64,000 nt of DNA from an uncultured archaeon (GTDB lineage: Archaea > Asgardarchaeota > Heimdallarchaeia > Heimdallarchaeales > Heimdallarchaeaceae), in assembly GCA_964534625.1 (NCBI GenBank), contig CAZHRF010000005.1, positions 32,001 to 96,000 on the forward strand. Direction: 5' to 3'. Both the position numbers and the translations under genes were made by a program. The notes under the pieces were generated by a model. The model worked only from the letters and a program-made list of their open reading frames with translations, was not told the DNA's origin and did not search any database. Shown here piece after piece: positions 35,793 to 56,950 of this stretch. Numbering within the stretch: position 1 is the stretch's first letter; each line of letters starts with the position of its first letter.

Positions 35793-38777
35793 TTAATTTT
35801 CAAAGATTGTAAGAGAGGTTTTGCAATAAGGACATCTTCCCTCTTGTTTAACCCACGCCACCAAATGCTTGAAGTGAAAGATTTTATTGCAAAGTGGGCA
35901 TTCAACTCCTTTTTCATAAACAGGTTTTGAACAGATTATACAAATATTTTTTGTATCTGTTGTTTTTATAATTCCTTTTCCTTTAGCTTTTATTTTTTGT
36001 ATAAACTTTGCTGCTTTGGAAATTGAATCAGCCACAATAACTATCTGCTGTTTTGGTTTGCCTCTTTCTTTTTTTATTGGTATTACTTCTTTAATCAGTA
36101 TATTTTCAGCTTGTTCTTTCAAATAGCTAACATACTGTTGCAAAATCGTGGCTCTTACTTCTGGATTACCCACTATAACAAGTTTTTTCTTTGCCCTTGT
36201 TATTGCTACATTCAGTCTTCTAGGATCTGAAAAACCCACATTCCCTTTTGTTTCAGTTTCAGTTAAAGATAACATAATTATCTCCCTATCACTACCTTGA
36301 AATCTATCCACAGTATCAACCACAGACATAGAGGGGGCCAACCTTCTTATTTCCCCTACTTGTCCTCTATATGGAGCTATTACTCCCAGCTGAGAACGTG
36401 ATATACCCAAAGAAAAAAAGCCTTTTATCACTTTGGCAACCACTTCTGCTTCTTCAACATTCATCTTTTTTGAGGCAACGAAATCCCCCCTAACGGGTAT
36501 AAAAACAAGCGGATATTCAGGCAGGTAGATATTTATATGTTCCAAATTTATCTTACTTTTATCATATCTGACTAAATCACTTAAATTCTGAGAACTTACT
36601 TTTTTATCAAAAGCACGCAATTTTCCATCATAAAATACTTGATTAGAAAACTCCATCAATTTCTCATTCATTCTAAACTGATGCGTCAAAAGATGAATGG
36701 TATCACGATGCTTATTTGCTAGTCTTTCGAATAGTGAAACTCCAAGCCCCTCATTCTGTGCATGTTGACTTTGTACAACAGGTGGTAACTGTTTATGATC
36801 TCCAACAAGAACACATCTATCCCCCTCTAAAATTGCCGATAAGAGATTTGGTTCTGTCATTTGGCTAGCCTCATCAACTATTATAGTTTGAAAACCCAAT
36901 TTTTCAAATATTGGACTAGAAATTGTAGAAGTTGTAGCTAATAAGATTGGAATATCCATCAACAATTGTTTTACATTCAAATTCGTTTTGTCTTTCATAG
37001 CTGATAATGTATTATCGCTTAGATTATCATCAATTACACGAGAACTGCCTAATCTTATGAAATCCTTAAAACCATTATCAATAAGGTAAGATGCCATATT
37101 ATCAACCGCTCTATTTGTAAACGCAGTTAACAATAGTTTTTCCTTCTTATTTGCTAGAGTTATAGCTGCTTTCGCAATAACATGTGTTTTCCCAGTACCC
37201 GCTGGTCCTTGAATAAGACAAAAACCTTCTGTTCCCAAAATTTTTTGTATCGCTTCATTTTGGACATTGTTATTTCTAATAAACATTCCATCTTGCTTGA
37301 TGACGGTAGATTTTTTACCATTAACAATATATTCTGTGAAATTATTTCTTTTAAATATCAGATGAAATAGTCCTCGTTGTTGCCGTCTATAGCTTATATC
37401 ATTGTAGTACACATCAATTGAATTGATTTTCGTTATAGCAGCTCTCGTTTCTATCTCAACAATATTTTCAGTTATTCTTGATATTACACCAGTTATTACG
37501 GGATTTGATACAACCTTAGCATCGCTTAGAAGAACTATATCTCCCTCCCTTAATTCTGATTTATTTTCACACGAAAATATAAATGTTGTAACACCATCCT
37601 CTGTAATTTGATTTTCGAGAGAGAGATTAGTAATAGTTTTTCCTTTTTCAACTCTTTCTTCAATGGATAGGTTCCATAAATCTGCAAGATTACGTTTCGA
37701 TTCATTTTTTTCTTTTCTAATCAAATTAGTATATCTCTCAAAATATGCAATATAATTGTCATTTAAAGCTTTTTTAGAACAAAAGGTTTCATGCGGACAT
37801 GTTGGGCAAGTTCTTTGATGATTTAATCCAGCACAAAGAATTGAGCAAAGGACTTTAACAGAACACTTAGAACATTTATTTATATTTTCTTCCGAAAGTA
37901 CAGGAGGTATAAATCCCAGATATGAAATCCTATACGCAAGGTTTCTCATTTCCATTGCAAAGCGTATAACTCCCCAATTAACATCTAATTGCTTTTTTAC
38001 TAAACTGCCAGATCCAACATAAAGGACAAAATTTGAATCAGTATTAAAATCAGTATCAAAACCATTAATGCCAAAACGATAAACAGCTACTTGCATTAAA
38101 TCTGAAAAACGATACCTATCATCTTCTGAAACATTAGCAGTTTTTAATTCATAAATTTTATTTTGACTTAAAAGATCAATCCTTCCTCGTACACCTAGAA
38201 TTGGAGAAAGAAAAAGTACTTCCGGTGAAGAATCTACTGAAAGCTCCTCAACAAATGGATCTAAAGACTCTGCCATTGAAAAAGTGTCTTGATAAACATC
38301 TTGTGATGAATAATTTAATTGTTCAATGTGAAGTGCATAACTATCAATTACTTCTGACAAAACCTTAGAAGGTTTAGACCGTGAGGAAATTGCTGCGCCC
38401 AATGCATTGTGAACAATAGTACCTCGTACAGCCACATAAGGCGAGGGACTGTCCCCAATAACTTGATTTATGTAAAAACTTCTTGGGCAAAATGAGATAT
38501 TGGAAAGAGATGATGCATTCACCAGTATATCGGGATCCACAATAACTATAGAACTTTTATCTGCTGAATAAAAAAAAGAATCACCTGTTTCAACTCGCTT
38601 GACATTTAACACACGTATTTTTGTATACGATACAAGATAATCACCAAGATCTGTCCAAGGTTCCCATAAATTAAGAACAAAACGGTTAAAATTCCTTTCA
38701 ACTAATATCGAGTATCTAGGGTTATTTCCCGCTTTATTTGAAAGAGTTTTAATATATATACATTCAAGATGTTCCAT
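35793..38777 (-). CDS. Dna2-like Fe-S PD-(D/E)xK nuclease plus SF1 helicase with a C-terminal RING-like zinc finger
   Basis: CPR...GTIVH...GRIDLL.....YELKT...CSKC.....C nuclease; QGPAGTGKT, DEASQ, GDHKQLPP, TVDRFQGSDRE, RLNVAITRAK; C-terminal CIIC-x10-CPLC-x4-H-x2-H-x10-CPYC. Confidence 0.9.
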   Translation of the reverse strand: MEHLECIYIKTLSNKAGNNPRYSILVERNFNRFVLNLWEPWTDLGDYLVSYTKIRVLNVKRVETGDSFFYSADKSSIVIVDPDILVNASSLSNISFCPRSFYINQVIGDSPSPYVAVRGTIVHNALGAAISSRSKPSKVLSEVIDSYALHIEQLNYSSQDVYQDTFSMAESLDPFVEELSVDSSPEVLFLSPILGVRGRIDLLSQNKIYELKTANVSEDDRYRFSDLMQVAVYRFGINGFDTDFNTDSNFVLYVGSGSLVKKQLDVNWGVIRFAMEMRNLAYRISYLGFIPPVLSEENINKCSKCSVKVLCSILCAGLNHQRTCPTCPHETFCSKKALNDNYIAYFERYTNLIRKEKNESKRNLADLWNLSIEERVEKGKTITNLSLENQITEDGVTTFIFSCENKSELREGDIVLLSDAKVVSNPVITGVISRITENIVEIETRAAITKINSIDVYYNDISYRRQQRGLFHLIFKRNNFTEYIVNGKKSTVIKQDGMFIRNNNVQNEAIQKILGTEGFCLIQGPAGTGKTHVIAKAAITLANKKEKLLLTAFTNRAVDNMASYLIDNGFKDFIRLGSSRVIDDNLSDNTLSAMKDKTNLNVKQLLMDIPILLATTSTISSPIFEKLGFQTIIVDEASQMTEPNLLSAILEGDRCVLVGDHKQLPPVVQSQHAQNEGLGVSLFERLANKHRDTIHLLTHQFRMNEKLMEFSNQVFYDGKLRAFDKKVSSQNLSDLVRYDKSKINLEHINIYLPEYPLVFIPVRGDFVASKKMNVEEAEVVAKVIKGFFSLGISRSQLGVIAPYRGQVGEIRRLAPSMSVVDTVDRFQGSDREIIMLSLTETETKGNVGFSDPRRLNVAITRAKKKLVIVGNPEVRATILQQYVSYLKEQAENILIKEVIPIKKERGKPKQQIVIVADSISKAAKFIQKIKAKGKGIIKTTDTKNICIICSKPVYEKGVECPLCNKIFHFKHLVAWVKQEGRCPYCKTSLTIFEN

Positions 38778-38900: not shown

Positions 38901-39416
38901 ATGAAGTGTGATGTCCTTCTTAATCAAGAGATATATGAAGAATTTTTATTAAAAAGAGCTATTTGCTCATCAAAGAGGTTATGGATAACTACAGGGGTAT
39001 CTACAAATTTTCTTATTAAACTAGGAGAAAAAAAATTTTTCAGGTTAGCTGAAATTCTATTATTACTTAGTCATAAAATTGATGTGCGGATCATCTCAGG
39101 ATTAGATGAAACCAAATCTAGTTTATTGAAAAAAGTGAAAGAAAAAAACCCCTCCTTAACTAAGCATTGTCCAAAGATGCATGCGAAAATGATTATAGTG
39201 GATAACAAAATAGCATATATTGGATCTGGCAATCTAACAGCAGCAGGAATGGGTAGACCCGATTTGTCAGAAAATAATTGGGAGGTTGGAGTGCAACTTC
39301 AAGACCAGCAAGCTTTATACAAATGTAGTAAATTTTTCCTAGAGATATGGAATGGAAAATTTTGCGCAGATTGTGAATATAAAGACGAATGTAATCAAAA
39401 AACAATGAAAGTATAA
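38901..39416 (+). CDS. Single-domain PLD (HKD) family nuclease-like protein
   Basis: HAKMIIVD....IGSGNLT, N.EVG, C-terminal CADCEYKDEC. Confidence 0.88.
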   Translation: MKCDVLLNQEIYEEFLLKRAICSSKRLWITTGVSTNFLIKLGEKKFFRLAEILLLLSHKIDVRIISGLDETKSSLLKKVKEKNPSLTKHCPKMHAKMIIVDNKIAYIGSGNLTAAGMGRPDLSENNWEVGVQLQDQQALYKCSKFFLEIWNGKFCADCEYKDECNQKTMKV

Positions 39417-40726: not shown

Positions 40727-42313
40727 TTATTGGAAGAATTGATCTAGAGACGTTTGGGGGCTTTTATGATCTTTTTTCTCTTGATGATTTTTTTCTTTTT
40801 CTGATAACGCATTTTCCAGAGTTATATCATCCGGTTCATCCGGTTCATCCGGTTCATCCGGTTCATCCGGTTCATCCGGTTCATTAAACTTGTCCAATCT
40901 TCTTTTCCTCAGAATTGGCACTTTGGTTGATCTTCTTTTATCTTTTTGAAAGTTAATAAAGGAATTAAGTACACTTTCCTCATCTTTTTTCTGTTCTTTT
41001 CTGATGTATTGTTCGGCCATTTGTCTATAGGCATCTTCATAATGTAACATAATTTTTTTATATTGCTGTTTTGAGTTTCCCGCTAGAAATTTTATCAAAT
41101 CTTGGTCTTCTTTTTTATCAAACCTAAGCCATACCGCTATTCCTGCTGCCATTTTAGGATCATTTTCAAAGATAAGTTTCAAGTAAGGAAAAAAATCATG
41201 CTCAAAAGAACTGCTAGAAGCATGGAAAAAATCTTTACTCTTTTCTGTTATTTTATCTAGTTTGGATCTAAAAGATCTTACTTTCCACCACACTTTCCAA
41301 TACGATGAAGATTTATTGAATCTTATTTTTTTATATGGAGTATGTTTTTGCAATCCTACACAAGCTATTAAACTAAAGTAATATTTTAGATACGACCAAT
41401 TTTGTGTTTCATAACATTTTGAAAGATAAAAATCTGCTAAAGCTATTAATTCATACATTTTGAACAGTTCTTCATTGTTACTGGCTTGTTTATATGCATG
41501 TTCAAAAACCGCATCTCTCAAATCCCTATAATCCACGTCTAAGTTGTATGTAGCAGATTGTGCTACCTCATAATCATTCGCACTAAAAATTGTTTCTAAT
41601 GCTTCTTCAATTTCCATTATTGTATCTCTTGGTGAAAAAGCAAACTCACCTTTATAATGGCTTGTAGCAATTCCTTGCAAGTCATTTATAGCTGATCTAG
41701 CATCACCACCACTATTTGCTGCTATTTTATGTAACACTTTGTCTTGTACATTTAGAGACATTTTTCTTTTTACTACTTGTAATAATTTCATTATTTCTTG
41801 GATAGATAGTCTCTCAAATTCAAAAACAATCATACTTTTTTTTGCTGATTTCAATGATTTCGAGTCTGGATCATTGGCTGTACATAATATGGGTATTCTC
41901 GTCTCTTTTATCACTCTAGCTAATGCCTTTGCTCCCCCTCTATCTTGATGACCAAACAATCCGTCAGCCTCATCCACAAGTAACATTTTTTTTACTCTTG
42001 CCCCTTGTAAGACTGTACCCTCCGTTGAGCTTTTACCAACATAATGTTCAATAGCCTTCTTGTTTCTTTTATCACTTGCATTAACTTCTACTAGTTCAAA
42101 ACCATATTTTTTAGCCAGATATAATACTACACTTGTTTTTCCTGTTCCAGCTGGGCCATAAAGTAAAGCAACTTTCTTTTTTTGTTTTTTCCAAGTTTTC
42201 AGCCAATATTCGATTTTTTCTACTGTTTTTCGATTTCCGATAAAATCAACTAATGTTTGTGGTCTGAGTCTTTCTACCCACGGCATCTGTTCCTTAGTAA
42301 TGTTTACAGCCAT
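40727..42313 (-). CDS. rfcL: Replication factor C large subunit
   Basis: PWVERLRP, GPAGTGKT, EVNASDKR, DEADG, GDARSAINDLQ, C-terminal PIP box QTSLDQFF. Confidence 0.95.
   Translation of the reverse strand: MAVNITKEQMPWVERLRPQTLVDFIGNRKTVEKIEYWLKTWKKQKKKVALLYGPAGTGKTSVVLYLAKKYGFELVEVNASDKRNKKAIEHYVGKSSTEGTVLQGARVKKMLLVDEADGLFGHQDRGGAKALARVIKETRIPILCTANDPDSKSLKSAKKSMIVFEFERLSIQEIMKLLQVVKRKMSLNVQDKVLHKIAANSGGDARSAINDLQGIATSHYKGEFAFSPRDTIMEIEEALETIFSANDYEVAQSATYNLDVDYRDLRDAVFEHAYKQASNNEELFKMYELIALADFYLSKCYETQNWSYLKYYFSLIACVGLQKHTPYKKIRFNKSSSYWKVWWKVRSFRSKLDKITEKSKDFFHASSSSFEHDFFPYLKLIFENDPKMAAGIAVWLRFDKKEDQDLIKFLAGNSKQQYKKIMLHYEDAYRQMAEQYIRKEQKKDEESVLNSFINFQKDKRRSTKVPILRKRRLDKFNEPDEPDEPDEPDEPDEPDDITLENALSEKEKNHQEKKDHKSPQTSLDQFFQ
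40827..40880. repeat. Perfect 9-bp tandem repeat (TCATCCGGT)x6 encoding (EPD)6 in the RFC-L tail
   Basis: Directly visible in the sequence. Confidence 0.97.
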
Positions 42314-54305: not shown

Positions 54306-54965
54306 TCAACTTGGTAGTTGTAAAAGATATAATCTTTTTTTCAATTTATGATACTTTTTAGCGAATTCAATACTAGAAATATCATAATCCTCAAATTGAT
54401 TTTCTATTGCAAATAATTGATTTTCAATCTCTAATATTTCATCATCAAGTTTTTTATGTTTTTCCTGCTCTATAGTTTGTTCTGAAAGATTGCGATTTTT
54501 CTTACTTGTTATATCTCTTAATTCTTTTTCTTTTTGTTCAACCAAAGTTGCAAGATGGTCTCTTTGTGATAATAATGGCGTTAGTTGCTCTTTTGGTTGT
54601 ATTTGTTGTCTCATACTTGGCTTTGCTAGCACTCTCCCTCTCACTTTTGAAAATAGTCTTTGTGTTTCGACCATCACTTGAAAAAGATGGTAATTGGGTC
54701 GCCATCTTGCTAACATCCTCATCGAGAGAATACCATTTTCTACATTCGGATGAGATATAGGTGTTTTAACATAAACTATTGGAGGAACACTTGGGAAATT
54801 TTCAGGTAATACTATTTCAAGTGCAACCATTGCTGTACCAGTTTGAGTTATCATCTTAACAAAGCCTCTCCAACGTTTTAGATTACCATCAATTGGTTCA
54901 AATCCATAAGCTCGTTCATAAACAAATGCAGCTTCTCTGACAAGAATTTCATCGGGGATTACCAT
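54306..54965 (-). CDS. UEV-Vps23/TSG101-like ESCRT-I subunit
   Basis: UBC fold (LPENFPSVPP, HPNV, W.P) with Ser in place of the catalytic Cys (NGILSMRML), a coiled coil, and a steadiness-box-like C-terminus (ISSIEFAKKYHKLKKRLYLL). Confidence 0.85.
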   Translation of the reverse strand: MVIPDEILVREAAFVYERAYGFEPIDGNLKRWRGFVKMITQTGTAMVALEIVLPENFPSVPPIVYVKTPISHPNVENGILSMRMLARWRPNYHLFQVMVETQRLFSKVRGRVLAKPSMRQQIQPKEQLTPLLSQRDHLATLVEQKEKELRDITSKKNRNLSEQTIEQEKHKKLDDEILEIENQLFAIENQFEDYDISSIEFAKKYHKLKKRLYLLQLPS

Positions 54966-55117: not shown

Positions 55118-56950
55118 ATGACCCGTATTGCAGTAATTGACCAAGAAACATGTAAACCAGATAAATGCGGAAAAGTATGCTACAAATATTGTCCTGTAGT
55201 CAGAACAGGTAAAGACTGCATCACTTTTGATCCACCAGAAAAGAAAGCAGTTATTCACGAAAATCTCTGTACAGGGTGTGGGATTTGTCCAAAAAAATGT
55301 CCTTTTGAATGTATCAAAATTATTAACTTACCTGAAGAATTAGATGATCAAGTTACTCACAGATATAGTCAAAATGGTTTTAAACTCCATCGTCTTCCTA
55401 TGCCAAAACTTGGATCTGCAATAGGTCTTGTTGGTCAAAATGGTTCTGGTAAGACCACAACCTTAAACATTCTTCAAGGGAGACTGAAACCAAATTTAGG
55501 GAAATATGAACATCCTCCCGAATGGGATGAGATAATTCAACATTACCGAGGAACGGTCATTCAGACATATTTTGAAGAATTAGTCAACAATAATCTTAAG
55601 GTTATATTGAAACCTCAAAATGTTGATAAACTCCCCAAAGTGATCAAGGGCACCGTTTCTGATTTAATTAAAAAGGCGGATGAGAGGGAAATTAGTGATG
55701 AACTAAAGGACGTTTTTTCTCTCAACAAAGTTTGGGATCGTGATATCTCAACCCTTAGTGGAGGGGAATTACAAAGACTCGCTTGTGCAGCAGCGGTAGC
55801 TAGAGAAGCCGATGTTTATCTTTTCGATGAACCAACGTCCTACTTAGATGTTAAGGAACGTGTAAAAATTGCGGATTATATAAATGGTATGCAATCACCA
55901 GAACGAACTATTGTTGTTGTAGAACATGATCTTGCAATGCTTGATTATTTAAGTGAACAAGTTTGTTTATATTATGGCAATGCGGGAGCATATGGTATTG
56001 TATCCCACCCTTATTCTGTGAGAGAGGGAATCAATGTTTTTCTCGATGGCTATATTCCCTCGGAAAACATGCGTTTTCGACCAGAACCCATCATATTCAA
56101 AAAAGCGAGTCAAGAAGACAGAATTGCTTCAGAAAGAGTTGCCATAAAATATGGTAATATGACAAAAAAATTCGAGAACTTTAAATTAGAGGTTCAAGGA
56201 GGAGAATTACGAAAAGGTGAAGTAGTTGGTATCATTGGACCGAATGGTATTGGAAAAACAACATTTATTAAAATGCTTGCTGGTTCTTTAGAGCCCACCA
56301 AAATGGAAGAACCAGTTCAGTTGATTAGTGGTTCTGGAGATAAAGAACTCCAAAAAGAAGCTGAAAGTATTACTATCTCTGCAAAGCCACAATACCTTTA
56401 TACTGAATCTGAAGAAACAGTCGATTCATATCTTAGAAATATCAATCAAATGATGACTTCAAGTGCCTGGCATAAAAGTGAGATTATAAGACCATTAGGC
56501 GTTACAAAAGTCATGAATAGCCGGTTGTGTGATCTATCTGGTGGTGAGTTGCAAAGAGTAGCTATTGCTGGGTGTTTGGGCAAAAAAGCGCATCTTTATT
56601 TATTAGATGAACCTTCAGCGTATATATCCGCAGAAGATCGCGTTACAGTAGCTAAAGTCATAAAACGAGTTGCTCTTCATTATGAAATGCCCATGGCAGT
56701 TGTAGAACATGATGTTATGTTGTTGAATTTTGTTAGTGATCGTTTAATGGTCTTTGATGGAAAACCAAGTGTCGAAGGAAAAGTATCTCGAATTAGAACT
56801 CTTCAGGACGGAATGAATACATTCCTTAAAAAAATGGATCTAACATTTAGACAAGACCCTAGAACCTTACGACCACGTGTCAATAAGAGAGGGTCTCAAT
56901 TAGATAAAAAACAAAAAGCACAAGGAAGATATTTTATGGTAGCAAAATAA
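55118..56950 (+). CDS. Ribosome recycling ATPase ABCE1/Rli1
   Basis: N-terminal Fe-S cysteines (CKPDKC...C..YCP, CTGCGICPKKCP), two ABC domains with LSGGELQR. Confidence 0.97.
   Translation: MTRIAVIDQETCKPDKCGKVCYKYCPVVRTGKDCITFDPPEKKAVIHENLCTGCGICPKKCPFECIKIINLPEELDDQVTHRYSQNGFKLHRLPMPKLGSAIGLVGQNGSGKTTTLNILQGRLKPNLGKYEHPPEWDEIIQHYRGTVIQTYFEELVNNNLKVILKPQNVDKLPKVIKGTVSDLIKKADEREISDELKDVFSLNKVWDRDISTLSGGELQRLACAAAVAREADVYLFDEPTSYLDVKERVKIADYINGMQSPERTIVVVEHDLAMLDYLSEQVCLYYGNAGAYGIVSHPYSVREGINVFLDGYIPSENMRFRPEPIIFKKASQEDRIASERVAIKYGNMTKKFENFKLEVQGGELRKGEVVGIIGPNGIGKTTFIKMLAGSLEPTKMEEPVQLISGSGDKELQKEAESITISAKPQYLYTESEETVDSYLRNINQMMTSSAWHKSEIIRPLGVTKVMNSRLCDLSGGELQRVAIAGCLGKKAHLYLLDEPSAYISAEDRVTVAKVIKRVALHYEMPMAVVEHDVMLLNFVSDRLMVFDGKPSVEGKVSRIRTLQDGMNTFLKKMDLTFRQDPRTLRPRVNKRGSQLDKKQKAQGRYFMVAK

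Follow-up and report, generated by a model that had tools for sequence, protein, structure and literature searches.

Control of DNA replication and repair by ubiquitin is seen as a hallmark of eukaryotes, and the question raised by one gene of an uncultured Heimdallarchaeaceae archaeon is whether an archaeal DNA-processing enzyme could carry a ubiquitin ligase of its own. The gene lies in a 64,000-nucleotide stretch of contig CAZHRF010000005.1 (assembly GCA_964534625.1, positions 32,001 to 96,000), hereafter the window, and was described in an initial annotation, made from the letters of the DNA alone, as encoding a Dna2-type nuclease-helicase fused to a C-terminal RING-like domain. Our analysis leaves very little doubt that the product is a complete Dna2-type nuclease-helicase with a RING-type tail (Table 1), and the gene is the single housekeeping Dna2 of this archaeon.

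The full-length AlphaFold2 (AF2) model of the protein, with a predicted local distance difference test (pLDDT) value of 88 and a predicted template modelling score (pTM) of 0.89, runs from an N-terminal beta domain through the nuclease and a stalk helix with its barrel to two RecA-like helicase domains, a linker and a confidently modelled terminal domain. A Foldseek search with this model placed three mouse Dna2 crystal structures on top (5EAN, E 2e-52, TMq 0.72, 1032 columns), followed by helicase-only relatives of the IGHMBP2/Upf1 family at TMq 0.5, and mouse DNA2 is also the best solved relative by sequence (1.5e-54), well above IGHMBP2 and Upf1. The likeness to the eukaryotic enzyme (mouse structures 5EAN, 5EAW and 5EAX) takes in a collinear N-terminal beta domain, the Fe-S nuclease, stalk and barrel, and domains 1A and 2A of a superfamily 1B (SF1B) helicase, the match to the mouse helicase alone reaching 177.6 bits over residues 502-871; assignment of the first 80 residues to an oligonucleotide/oligosaccharide-binding (OB) fold is suggested by their collinearity within the full-length structural match. 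The nuclease catalytic residues D201, E210, K212, Q229 and Y233 and the predicted Fe-S ligands C97, C302, C305 and C311 (C ... C-x2-C-x5-C) are invariant in 51 aligned homologues, the four cysteines fall on mouse Dna2 cysteines in the alignment, and the Walker A (GTGKT) and Walker B (DEASQ) motifs of the helicase are likewise invariant among the aligned homologues. Pfam, the mouse Dna2 sequence alignment and the full-length fold match agree on an Fe-S PD-(D/E)xK nuclease plus SF1 helicase of the Dna2 type, as had been claimed. The closest database relatives (51-55% identity, full coverage) have the source names Heimdallarchaeaceae, Heimdallarchaeum aukensis or 'Asgard group', a second tier at ~33% identity is labelled Hodarchaeales or Heimdallarchaeota, and halobacterial Dna2 forms the third.

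Beyond the linker, the tail presents eight putative zinc ligands (C946, C949, C960, C963, H968, H971, C982 and C985), whose codons span window positions 35823-35942; the motif C-x2-C-x10-C-x2-C-x4-H-x2-H-x10-C-x2-C, with W975 in HLVAW, is as the initial annotation had given it and fits the interval of ~35820-35945 proposed there. None of the eight varies among 22 compared tails, which come from genomes of four GTDB families and have identities to the window's tail as low as 16%, and the motif is therefore not a chance occurrence. When a profile of the 22 tails was compared with all sequences of the PDB, the first ~35 matches were all RING E3 ligases, including Arkadia (7.7e-11), RNF165 (3.7e-10), AMFR, HRD1 and RNF38 (within 7.7e-11 to 1e-07), and also RLIM and RNF13, while PHD fingers gave partial matches only (E 0.018-0.023). 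With the Pfam family zf-RING_2 (PF13639), the isolated tail scored 27.4 bits against a gathering cut-off of 27.3, and a genome scan gave 27.7; a word-based search with the tail alone returned only the query.

The predicted fold points the same way. The tail model has pLDDT values of 80-90 over the last 50 residues and consists of a beta hairpin followed by a helix over HLVAWVKQEGR and a last strand. It superposes on the RINGs of HRD1 and RNF165 with root mean square deviations (rmsd) of 1.3 Å (48 columns) and 1.5 Å (45 columns), respectively. In two fold searches, one re-examining the Foldseek candidates and the other scanning 48,161 representative chains independently, the top 50 matches were essentially all RING, U-box or RING-like, the best of them with VIA Z values of 5-7 (up to 7.1) and rmsd of 1.3-1.9 Å over 45-51 residues, and neither a PHD nor a C1 domain was among these 50. 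Because the domain is small, the Z values are modest, and the homology claim is therefore carried by the sequence evidence. The ligand spacing resembles that of a PHD finger, but the residue two before C7 is G, E or D instead of W and the Trp occupies the RING position; a C1 reading reached 19 bits over part of the tail only, with no C1 domain among the top sequence matches either. By profile homology and predicted fold, the tail is a RING and not a PHD or C1 domain.

Its closest counterparts are the RING-H2 ligases Arkadia/RNF111, RNF165, HRD1, gp78/AMFR and RNF38, with which it aligns at ligands 1, 2, 5, 7 and 8, the helix that bears the Trp, C-P-x-C and the basic position following the final Cys. 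Superposition on these ligases gives rmsd values of 1.3-1.6 Å over 45-50 residues, and the tail differs from them in being joined to a DNA enzyme and in its ligands. Aligned to Arkadia, the tail has its canonical C3 in the second Cys of C-P-x-C. The residue where H4 would normally stand varies (K here, H in many relatives), and its place is taken by an invariant Cys three residues upstream of C3; with a His at C6, the pattern becomes C4H2C2, and a cross-brace arrangement of these ligands is suggested by the superposition. The call of a RING-like C-terminal domain stood up to profile comparison and to the fold check that had been suggested for the last residues, with the amendment that the ligand set is C4H2C2 and not the canonical C3H2C3.

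Table 1. Features of the Dna2-RING gene, with residues of the encoded protein and positions in the window.
Feature	Residues	Window positions	Strand	Basis
Whole gene, Dna2 nuclease-helicase with C-terminal RING	994 aa + stop	35793..38777	-	One ATG-to-stop open reading frame (ORF); ORF list, translation
N-terminal all-beta (OB-like) domain	1-80	38538..38777	-	Model: strands 2-15, 21-28, 31-38, 53-64, 67-72, 77-80, pLDDT ~90
PD-(D/E)xK nuclease with four Fe-S cysteines	85-335	37773..38525	-	Pfam Dna2 PF08696 1.4e-12, PDDEXK_1 7.8e-07
Second Cys set, directly after the Fe-S motif	C315, C324, C327, H329, C333	37779..37835	-	C315-x8-C324-P-T-C327-x5-C333
Stalk helix and beta-barrel between nuclease and helicase	340-456	37410..37760	-	Model: helix 340-378, then strands 381-456; collinear with mouse Dna2
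SF1B (Upf1-like) helicase domains 1A and 2A	500-890	36108..37280	-	AAA_11 9.7e-37, AAA_12 1.1e-44
Linker	891-944	35946..36107	-	Two short strands (912-916, 924-928), then disordered Lys-rich stretch
RING-H2-like C4H2C2 zinc finger, predicted cross-brace	945-994	35796..35945	-	Profile homology, tail model, superposition

The initial annotation had proposed a survey of this architecture across Asgard genomes, and the fusion proved to be kept in close relatives. Among 201 sampled genomes of the phylum, full-length Dna2 matches came from four of the families in the class (f1, 21/21 genomes; f2, 6/7; f3, 1/1; f5, 4/10), the other families yielding nothing but two helicase-only matches, and each matching genome had one Dna2 match, except G184, where the gene is split over two contigs. 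Within the window's family the tail was seen at 20 of 21 loci, the 21st gene being truncated where its contig stops. When 1.84 billion cluster representatives were searched with a profile, further Dna2-length proteins ending in the same RING came up; those with names are all from the Heimdall group, including Kariarchaeaceae, and one member labelled 'Thorarchaeota' shares its 90% cluster with a 'Heimdallarchaeota' one. The Dna2 homologue of one relative (L033, G166:C90:10080-12986) has an in-frame TAG, which may reflect a disrupted gene or a fault in the assembly. In a tree of the 49-column RING the Dna2 tails were not recovered as one clade and a single clade was not rejected (approximately unbiased test, p-AU 0.23); this tree neither shows nor excludes that the fusion arose once.

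Ubiquitin, E1 and E2, which the initial annotation had listed among the components encoded by Asgard archaea, are all encoded by the window's genome. It holds two genes for ubiquitin, five of ThiF/E1-like type and four with a UBC fold; of the four UBC-fold proteins, two (G000:C1:198268-198612 and G000:C72:6216-6692) have the HPN motif and catalytic Cys of E2s, and the other two, which lack the Cys, resemble ubiquitin E2 variants (UEVs). The ubiquitin clusters are on contigs other than that of Dna2, one of them (G000:C72:1145-6692) with E1, ubiquitin, RING and E2 genes all on the minus strand, and another (G000:C36:4702-6393) with ubiquitin, an E1-like gene and a gene for a 494-aa UEV protein. 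A 219-aa UEV-like protein, with HPN kept and no catalytic Cys, is encoded in the window itself (54306-54965, minus strand), beside a gene for an ABCE1/RLI-type ATPase (55118-56950). The pattern CPxC-x4-H-x2-H-L-x2-W-x6-CPxC occurs in at least seven other ORFs of the genome, and the RING of the C72 cluster is a close variant of the tail pattern (CPxC-x4-H) with E at the expected sixth ligand. Among the other ORFs with the C4H2C2 variant, one (G000:C16:28388-28516, L042) has the RING at the C-terminus of a protein with a PCI-domain match, related to proteins of the proteasome lid, the COP9 signalosome (CSN) and eIF3. The genome also encodes a second RING-helicase fusion (G000:C53:14048-17119, minus strand; L048:1049-4120:-), a 1023-aa ORF in which an N-terminal RING (residues 35-78, zf-RING_2 29.8 bits) is followed by a ResIII/DEAD helicase core of superfamily 2 (SF2).

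Could the Dna2 tail work with these E2s? In RING domains, E2 contact involves a hydrophobic residue before C2, the helix Trp, a Pro after C7 and a basic linchpin after C8. The residue before C2 (position 948) is hydrophobic (I/V/L/F) in 22/22 tails, W975 is kept in 21, P983 in 18 and a basic residue at K/R986 in 17, and all four positions are retained in the window's family (I948 and K986 here). On balance we favour, with some reserve, the prediction that the RING tail is an E3 that brings ubiquitin-charged E2 to DNA-engaged Dna2, because the best sequence relatives of the tail are active RING-H2 ligases, because the E2-contact-type positions are conserved, and because archaeal RINGs whose ligands deviate in a similar way have E3 activity: in srfp of Caldiarchaeum subterraneum, a biochemically proven RING E3, C3 and H4 are out of register and there is an extra Cys, C3B (PMC5654768).

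Beyond the domain identities, fold, conserved fusion and ubiquitin toolkit described above, we infer E2 binding, ligase activity, substrate and outcome as follows. A free single-stranded DNA (ssDNA) end would thread through the nuclease tunnel with the SF1B helicase domain assisting in binding, as in mouse Dna2, where a free ssDNA end passes through a tunnel holding the nuclease site and the helicase domain helps to bind it (PMC4716839). Behind helicase domain 2A, the RING-H2-type domain sits on a flexible tether of ~15-30 residues and would serve as a built-in E3, binding charged E2 via I948, W975 and P983 and activating it by K986 at the linchpin position, with the genome's two E2s with HPN and catalytic Cys as candidate partners. 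Ubiquitin could then be passed to lysines in reach of the DNA-engaged Dna2, either on Dna2 itself or on candidate neighbours on ssDNA such as RPA, PCNA or Fen1, and this ubiquitylation may limit flap or end processing or hand it over. Self-modification of the Lys-rich linker is attractive in the window's family, although the linker is not basic in other families. A role of Dna2-RING in DNA-damage signalling, which had been raised in the initial annotation, is likewise conjectural.

Several observations weigh against ligase function. Within the whole protein zf-RING_2 scores 21.1 bits, under the cut-off that the isolated tail barely reaches, and the ligand set departs from the canonical one. 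Since 83/83 genomes of the class encode an E2, the co-occurrence of tail and E2 fits a ligase but is uninformative as a test. Hodarchaeales-type tails have V at P983 and Q at K986, and in the L027 lineage W975 is missing and the helix is shortened, so that E2 activation may not be universal. Lastly, no conserved linkage of Dna2 to ubiquitin genes, or to any neighbour tested, was observed. Some RINGs are non-catalytic scaffolds, and the strongest alternative, to which we give real but clearly smaller weight, is that the tail is a zinc scaffold of this kind, used for dimerisation or to bind a partner (RPA, PCNA or a UEV protein, for example), without E2 activation. Scaffold function would be consistent with the loss of Pro and linchpin in Hodarchaeales-type tails and of the Trp in L027, with the separation of the Dna2 gene from the ubiquitin genes, and with the presence of GATOR2 WDR59/WDR24, Nse1, Bmi1 and PCGF5 among the fold matches, which also counts against the ligase prediction. 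It is harder to reconcile with the retention of all four E2-contact-type positions in the window's family, with best sequence relatives that are active ligases, monomeric or dimeric, and with the activity of the archaeal RINGs that share the ligand peculiarity.

The linker bears on a further explanation, in which the zinc tail and a basic linker would form a nucleic-acid-binding module that helps Dna2 to hold DNA. The 41 residues before C946 contain 11 K+R vs 2 D+E, the stretch 932-940 is disordered in the model (pLDDT <50), and the linker has a net charge of +9, which, since zinc fingers often bind DNA, could speak for such a module. Within the window's family most members have a net charge of +2 to +7 and L024 has -1, but in other families of the class the charge ranges from -6 to +4; the Lys-rich linker of the initial annotation is thus present here but family-specific, and it is not conserved across the class as a general part of the design. 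Moreover, no DNA-binding zinc-finger family was found among the top sequence or fold matches, and the conserved positions are hydrophobic and of the E2 type, not basic, leaving a DNA-binding role of the tail improbable. We think it slightly less probable again that the tail is an E3 for another ubiquitin-like modifier (SAMP/Urm1-type) or works with a non-UQ_con partner; the five ThiF/E1-like genes exceed the need of two ubiquitin clusters, but RINGs work with E2s of the UBC fold, SAMP and Urm1 systems are not known to use E2 or RING, and the genome has genuine ubiquitin and Cys-bearing E2s. An anti-virus defence protein in place of a housekeeping Dna2 is highly improbable, since the matches to PADLOC MkoA (Mokosh, 242 bits) and the NCBIfam PLuB helicase-like family (271 bits vs a curated cut-off of 999) cover the helicase core only, whereas this is a single-copy gene that 21/21 genomes of the family possess and that lacks conserved neighbours, and its Dna2 match is full length, including N-terminal domain and nuclease.

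How does a Dna2 with a built-in RING compare with known systems? Rad5, HLTF and SHPRH are SNF2 (SF2) ATPases with an embedded RING, and like the window's protein they unite a motor acting on nucleic acid with a ubiquitin ligase module in a single chain, but there the RING is inserted in an SF2 ATPase, whereas here it is C-terminal to an SF1B helicase (AAA_11/AAA_12). ZNFX1 combines a Upf1-like SF1 helicase with an E3 in one chain (bioRxiv 10.1101/2025.10.14.682297), and its helicase core is detectably related to that of the window's protein (1.9e-23), but it has NFX1-type fingers and acts on RNA; neither the Rad5-type proteins nor ZNFX1 has a nuclease, and neither is a Dna2. Among Asgard archaea an E1/E2/RING E3 cascade has been reconstituted for Helarchaeia (bioRxiv 10.1101/2023.07.25.550441). 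The small operonic RING E3s of archaea are the same kind of archaeal RING, Caldiarchaeum srfp having a similar ligand shift and extra Cys, yet they stand alone beside ubiquitin, E1 and E2, whereas the window's RING is fused to a 944-residue enzyme far from ubiquitin genes.

Halobacterial and mouse Dna2 lack the tail. Halobacterial Dna2 (e.g. 'DNA replication factor Dna2' of Halorubrum lacusprofundi) has the same nuclease and helicase motifs at ~30% identity over 84-88% of the length, but at ~895 aa it ends right after the helicase, with neither linker nor RING. That eukaryotic Dna2 has no RING, as the initial annotation held, was borne out for mouse, whose match ends at query residue 871 and whose protein stops soon after helicase motif VI, without RING and without the second Cys set. 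Eukaryotic Dna2 is instead controlled in trans by separate RING E3s, TRAF6 (PMC6698806) and CRL4-Cdt2 (PMC7394458). A 2025 study of the Asgard replisome relates eukaryotic Dna2 to Asgard homologues and does not mention a RING (PMC12680538), and full-text literature searches gave no published description of a Dna2-RING fusion.

Two further aspects of the locus concern the nuclease and the neighbouring genes. The second Cys set, which had been noted after the Fe-S cysteines, is real and is joined by H329; with it, C-x2-C-x5-C occurs twice in the protein. It is invariant in 20/20 proteins of the Heimdallarchaeaceae-type group at ~51-55% identity, absent from Hodarchaeales-type proteins, and present in 2/17 outgroup sequences. 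The model around it is a low-confidence coil (10-residue block means 60-83), and the set is probably an extra putative metal site specific to the window's family. The neighbours of Dna2 encode a EutA-like protein, a gamma-glutamyltranspeptidase, a small phospholipase D (PLD)-like nuclease, a phosphoribosyltransferase and an AAA+ protein like the replication factor C (RFC) large subunit or Rad17. Of the four nearest neighbours examined, none is conserved beside Dna2 except the PLD-like gene in two relatives; the EutA-like, gamma-glutamyltranspeptidase and phosphoribosyltransferase genes and orf102 are not conserved there. The small PLD-family (Nuc-like) nuclease gene (38901-39416, plus strand), divergent from Dna2, is kept beside it in two relatives only (L013 and L018), and the 528-aa RFC-large-subunit/Rad17-like protein is encoded ~2 kb from Dna2 (40727-42313, minus strand).

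The locus thus offers a RING of the ubiquitin-ligase type on the sole Dna2 of a class of archaea that lies near the eukaryotic stem and whose genomes have ubiquitin, E1 and E2, and this suggests, short of proof, that ubiquitin tagging was linked to the upkeep of DNA in archaea closely related to eukaryotes. A wider scenario, which we put forward tentatively and consider rather unlikely as a whole, would make Dna2-RING an active, DNA-engaged E3 on RPA, PCNA or Dna2 that is older than the split of the Heimdallarchaeia families; ubiquitin control of replication and repair would then be an archaeal invention, later split in eukaryotes into a tail-less Dna2 and RING ligases acting in trans. If the tail is active, this protein would provide a simple one-protein system for studying how ubiquitin first met DNA metabolism, one open to tests with recombinant proteins.

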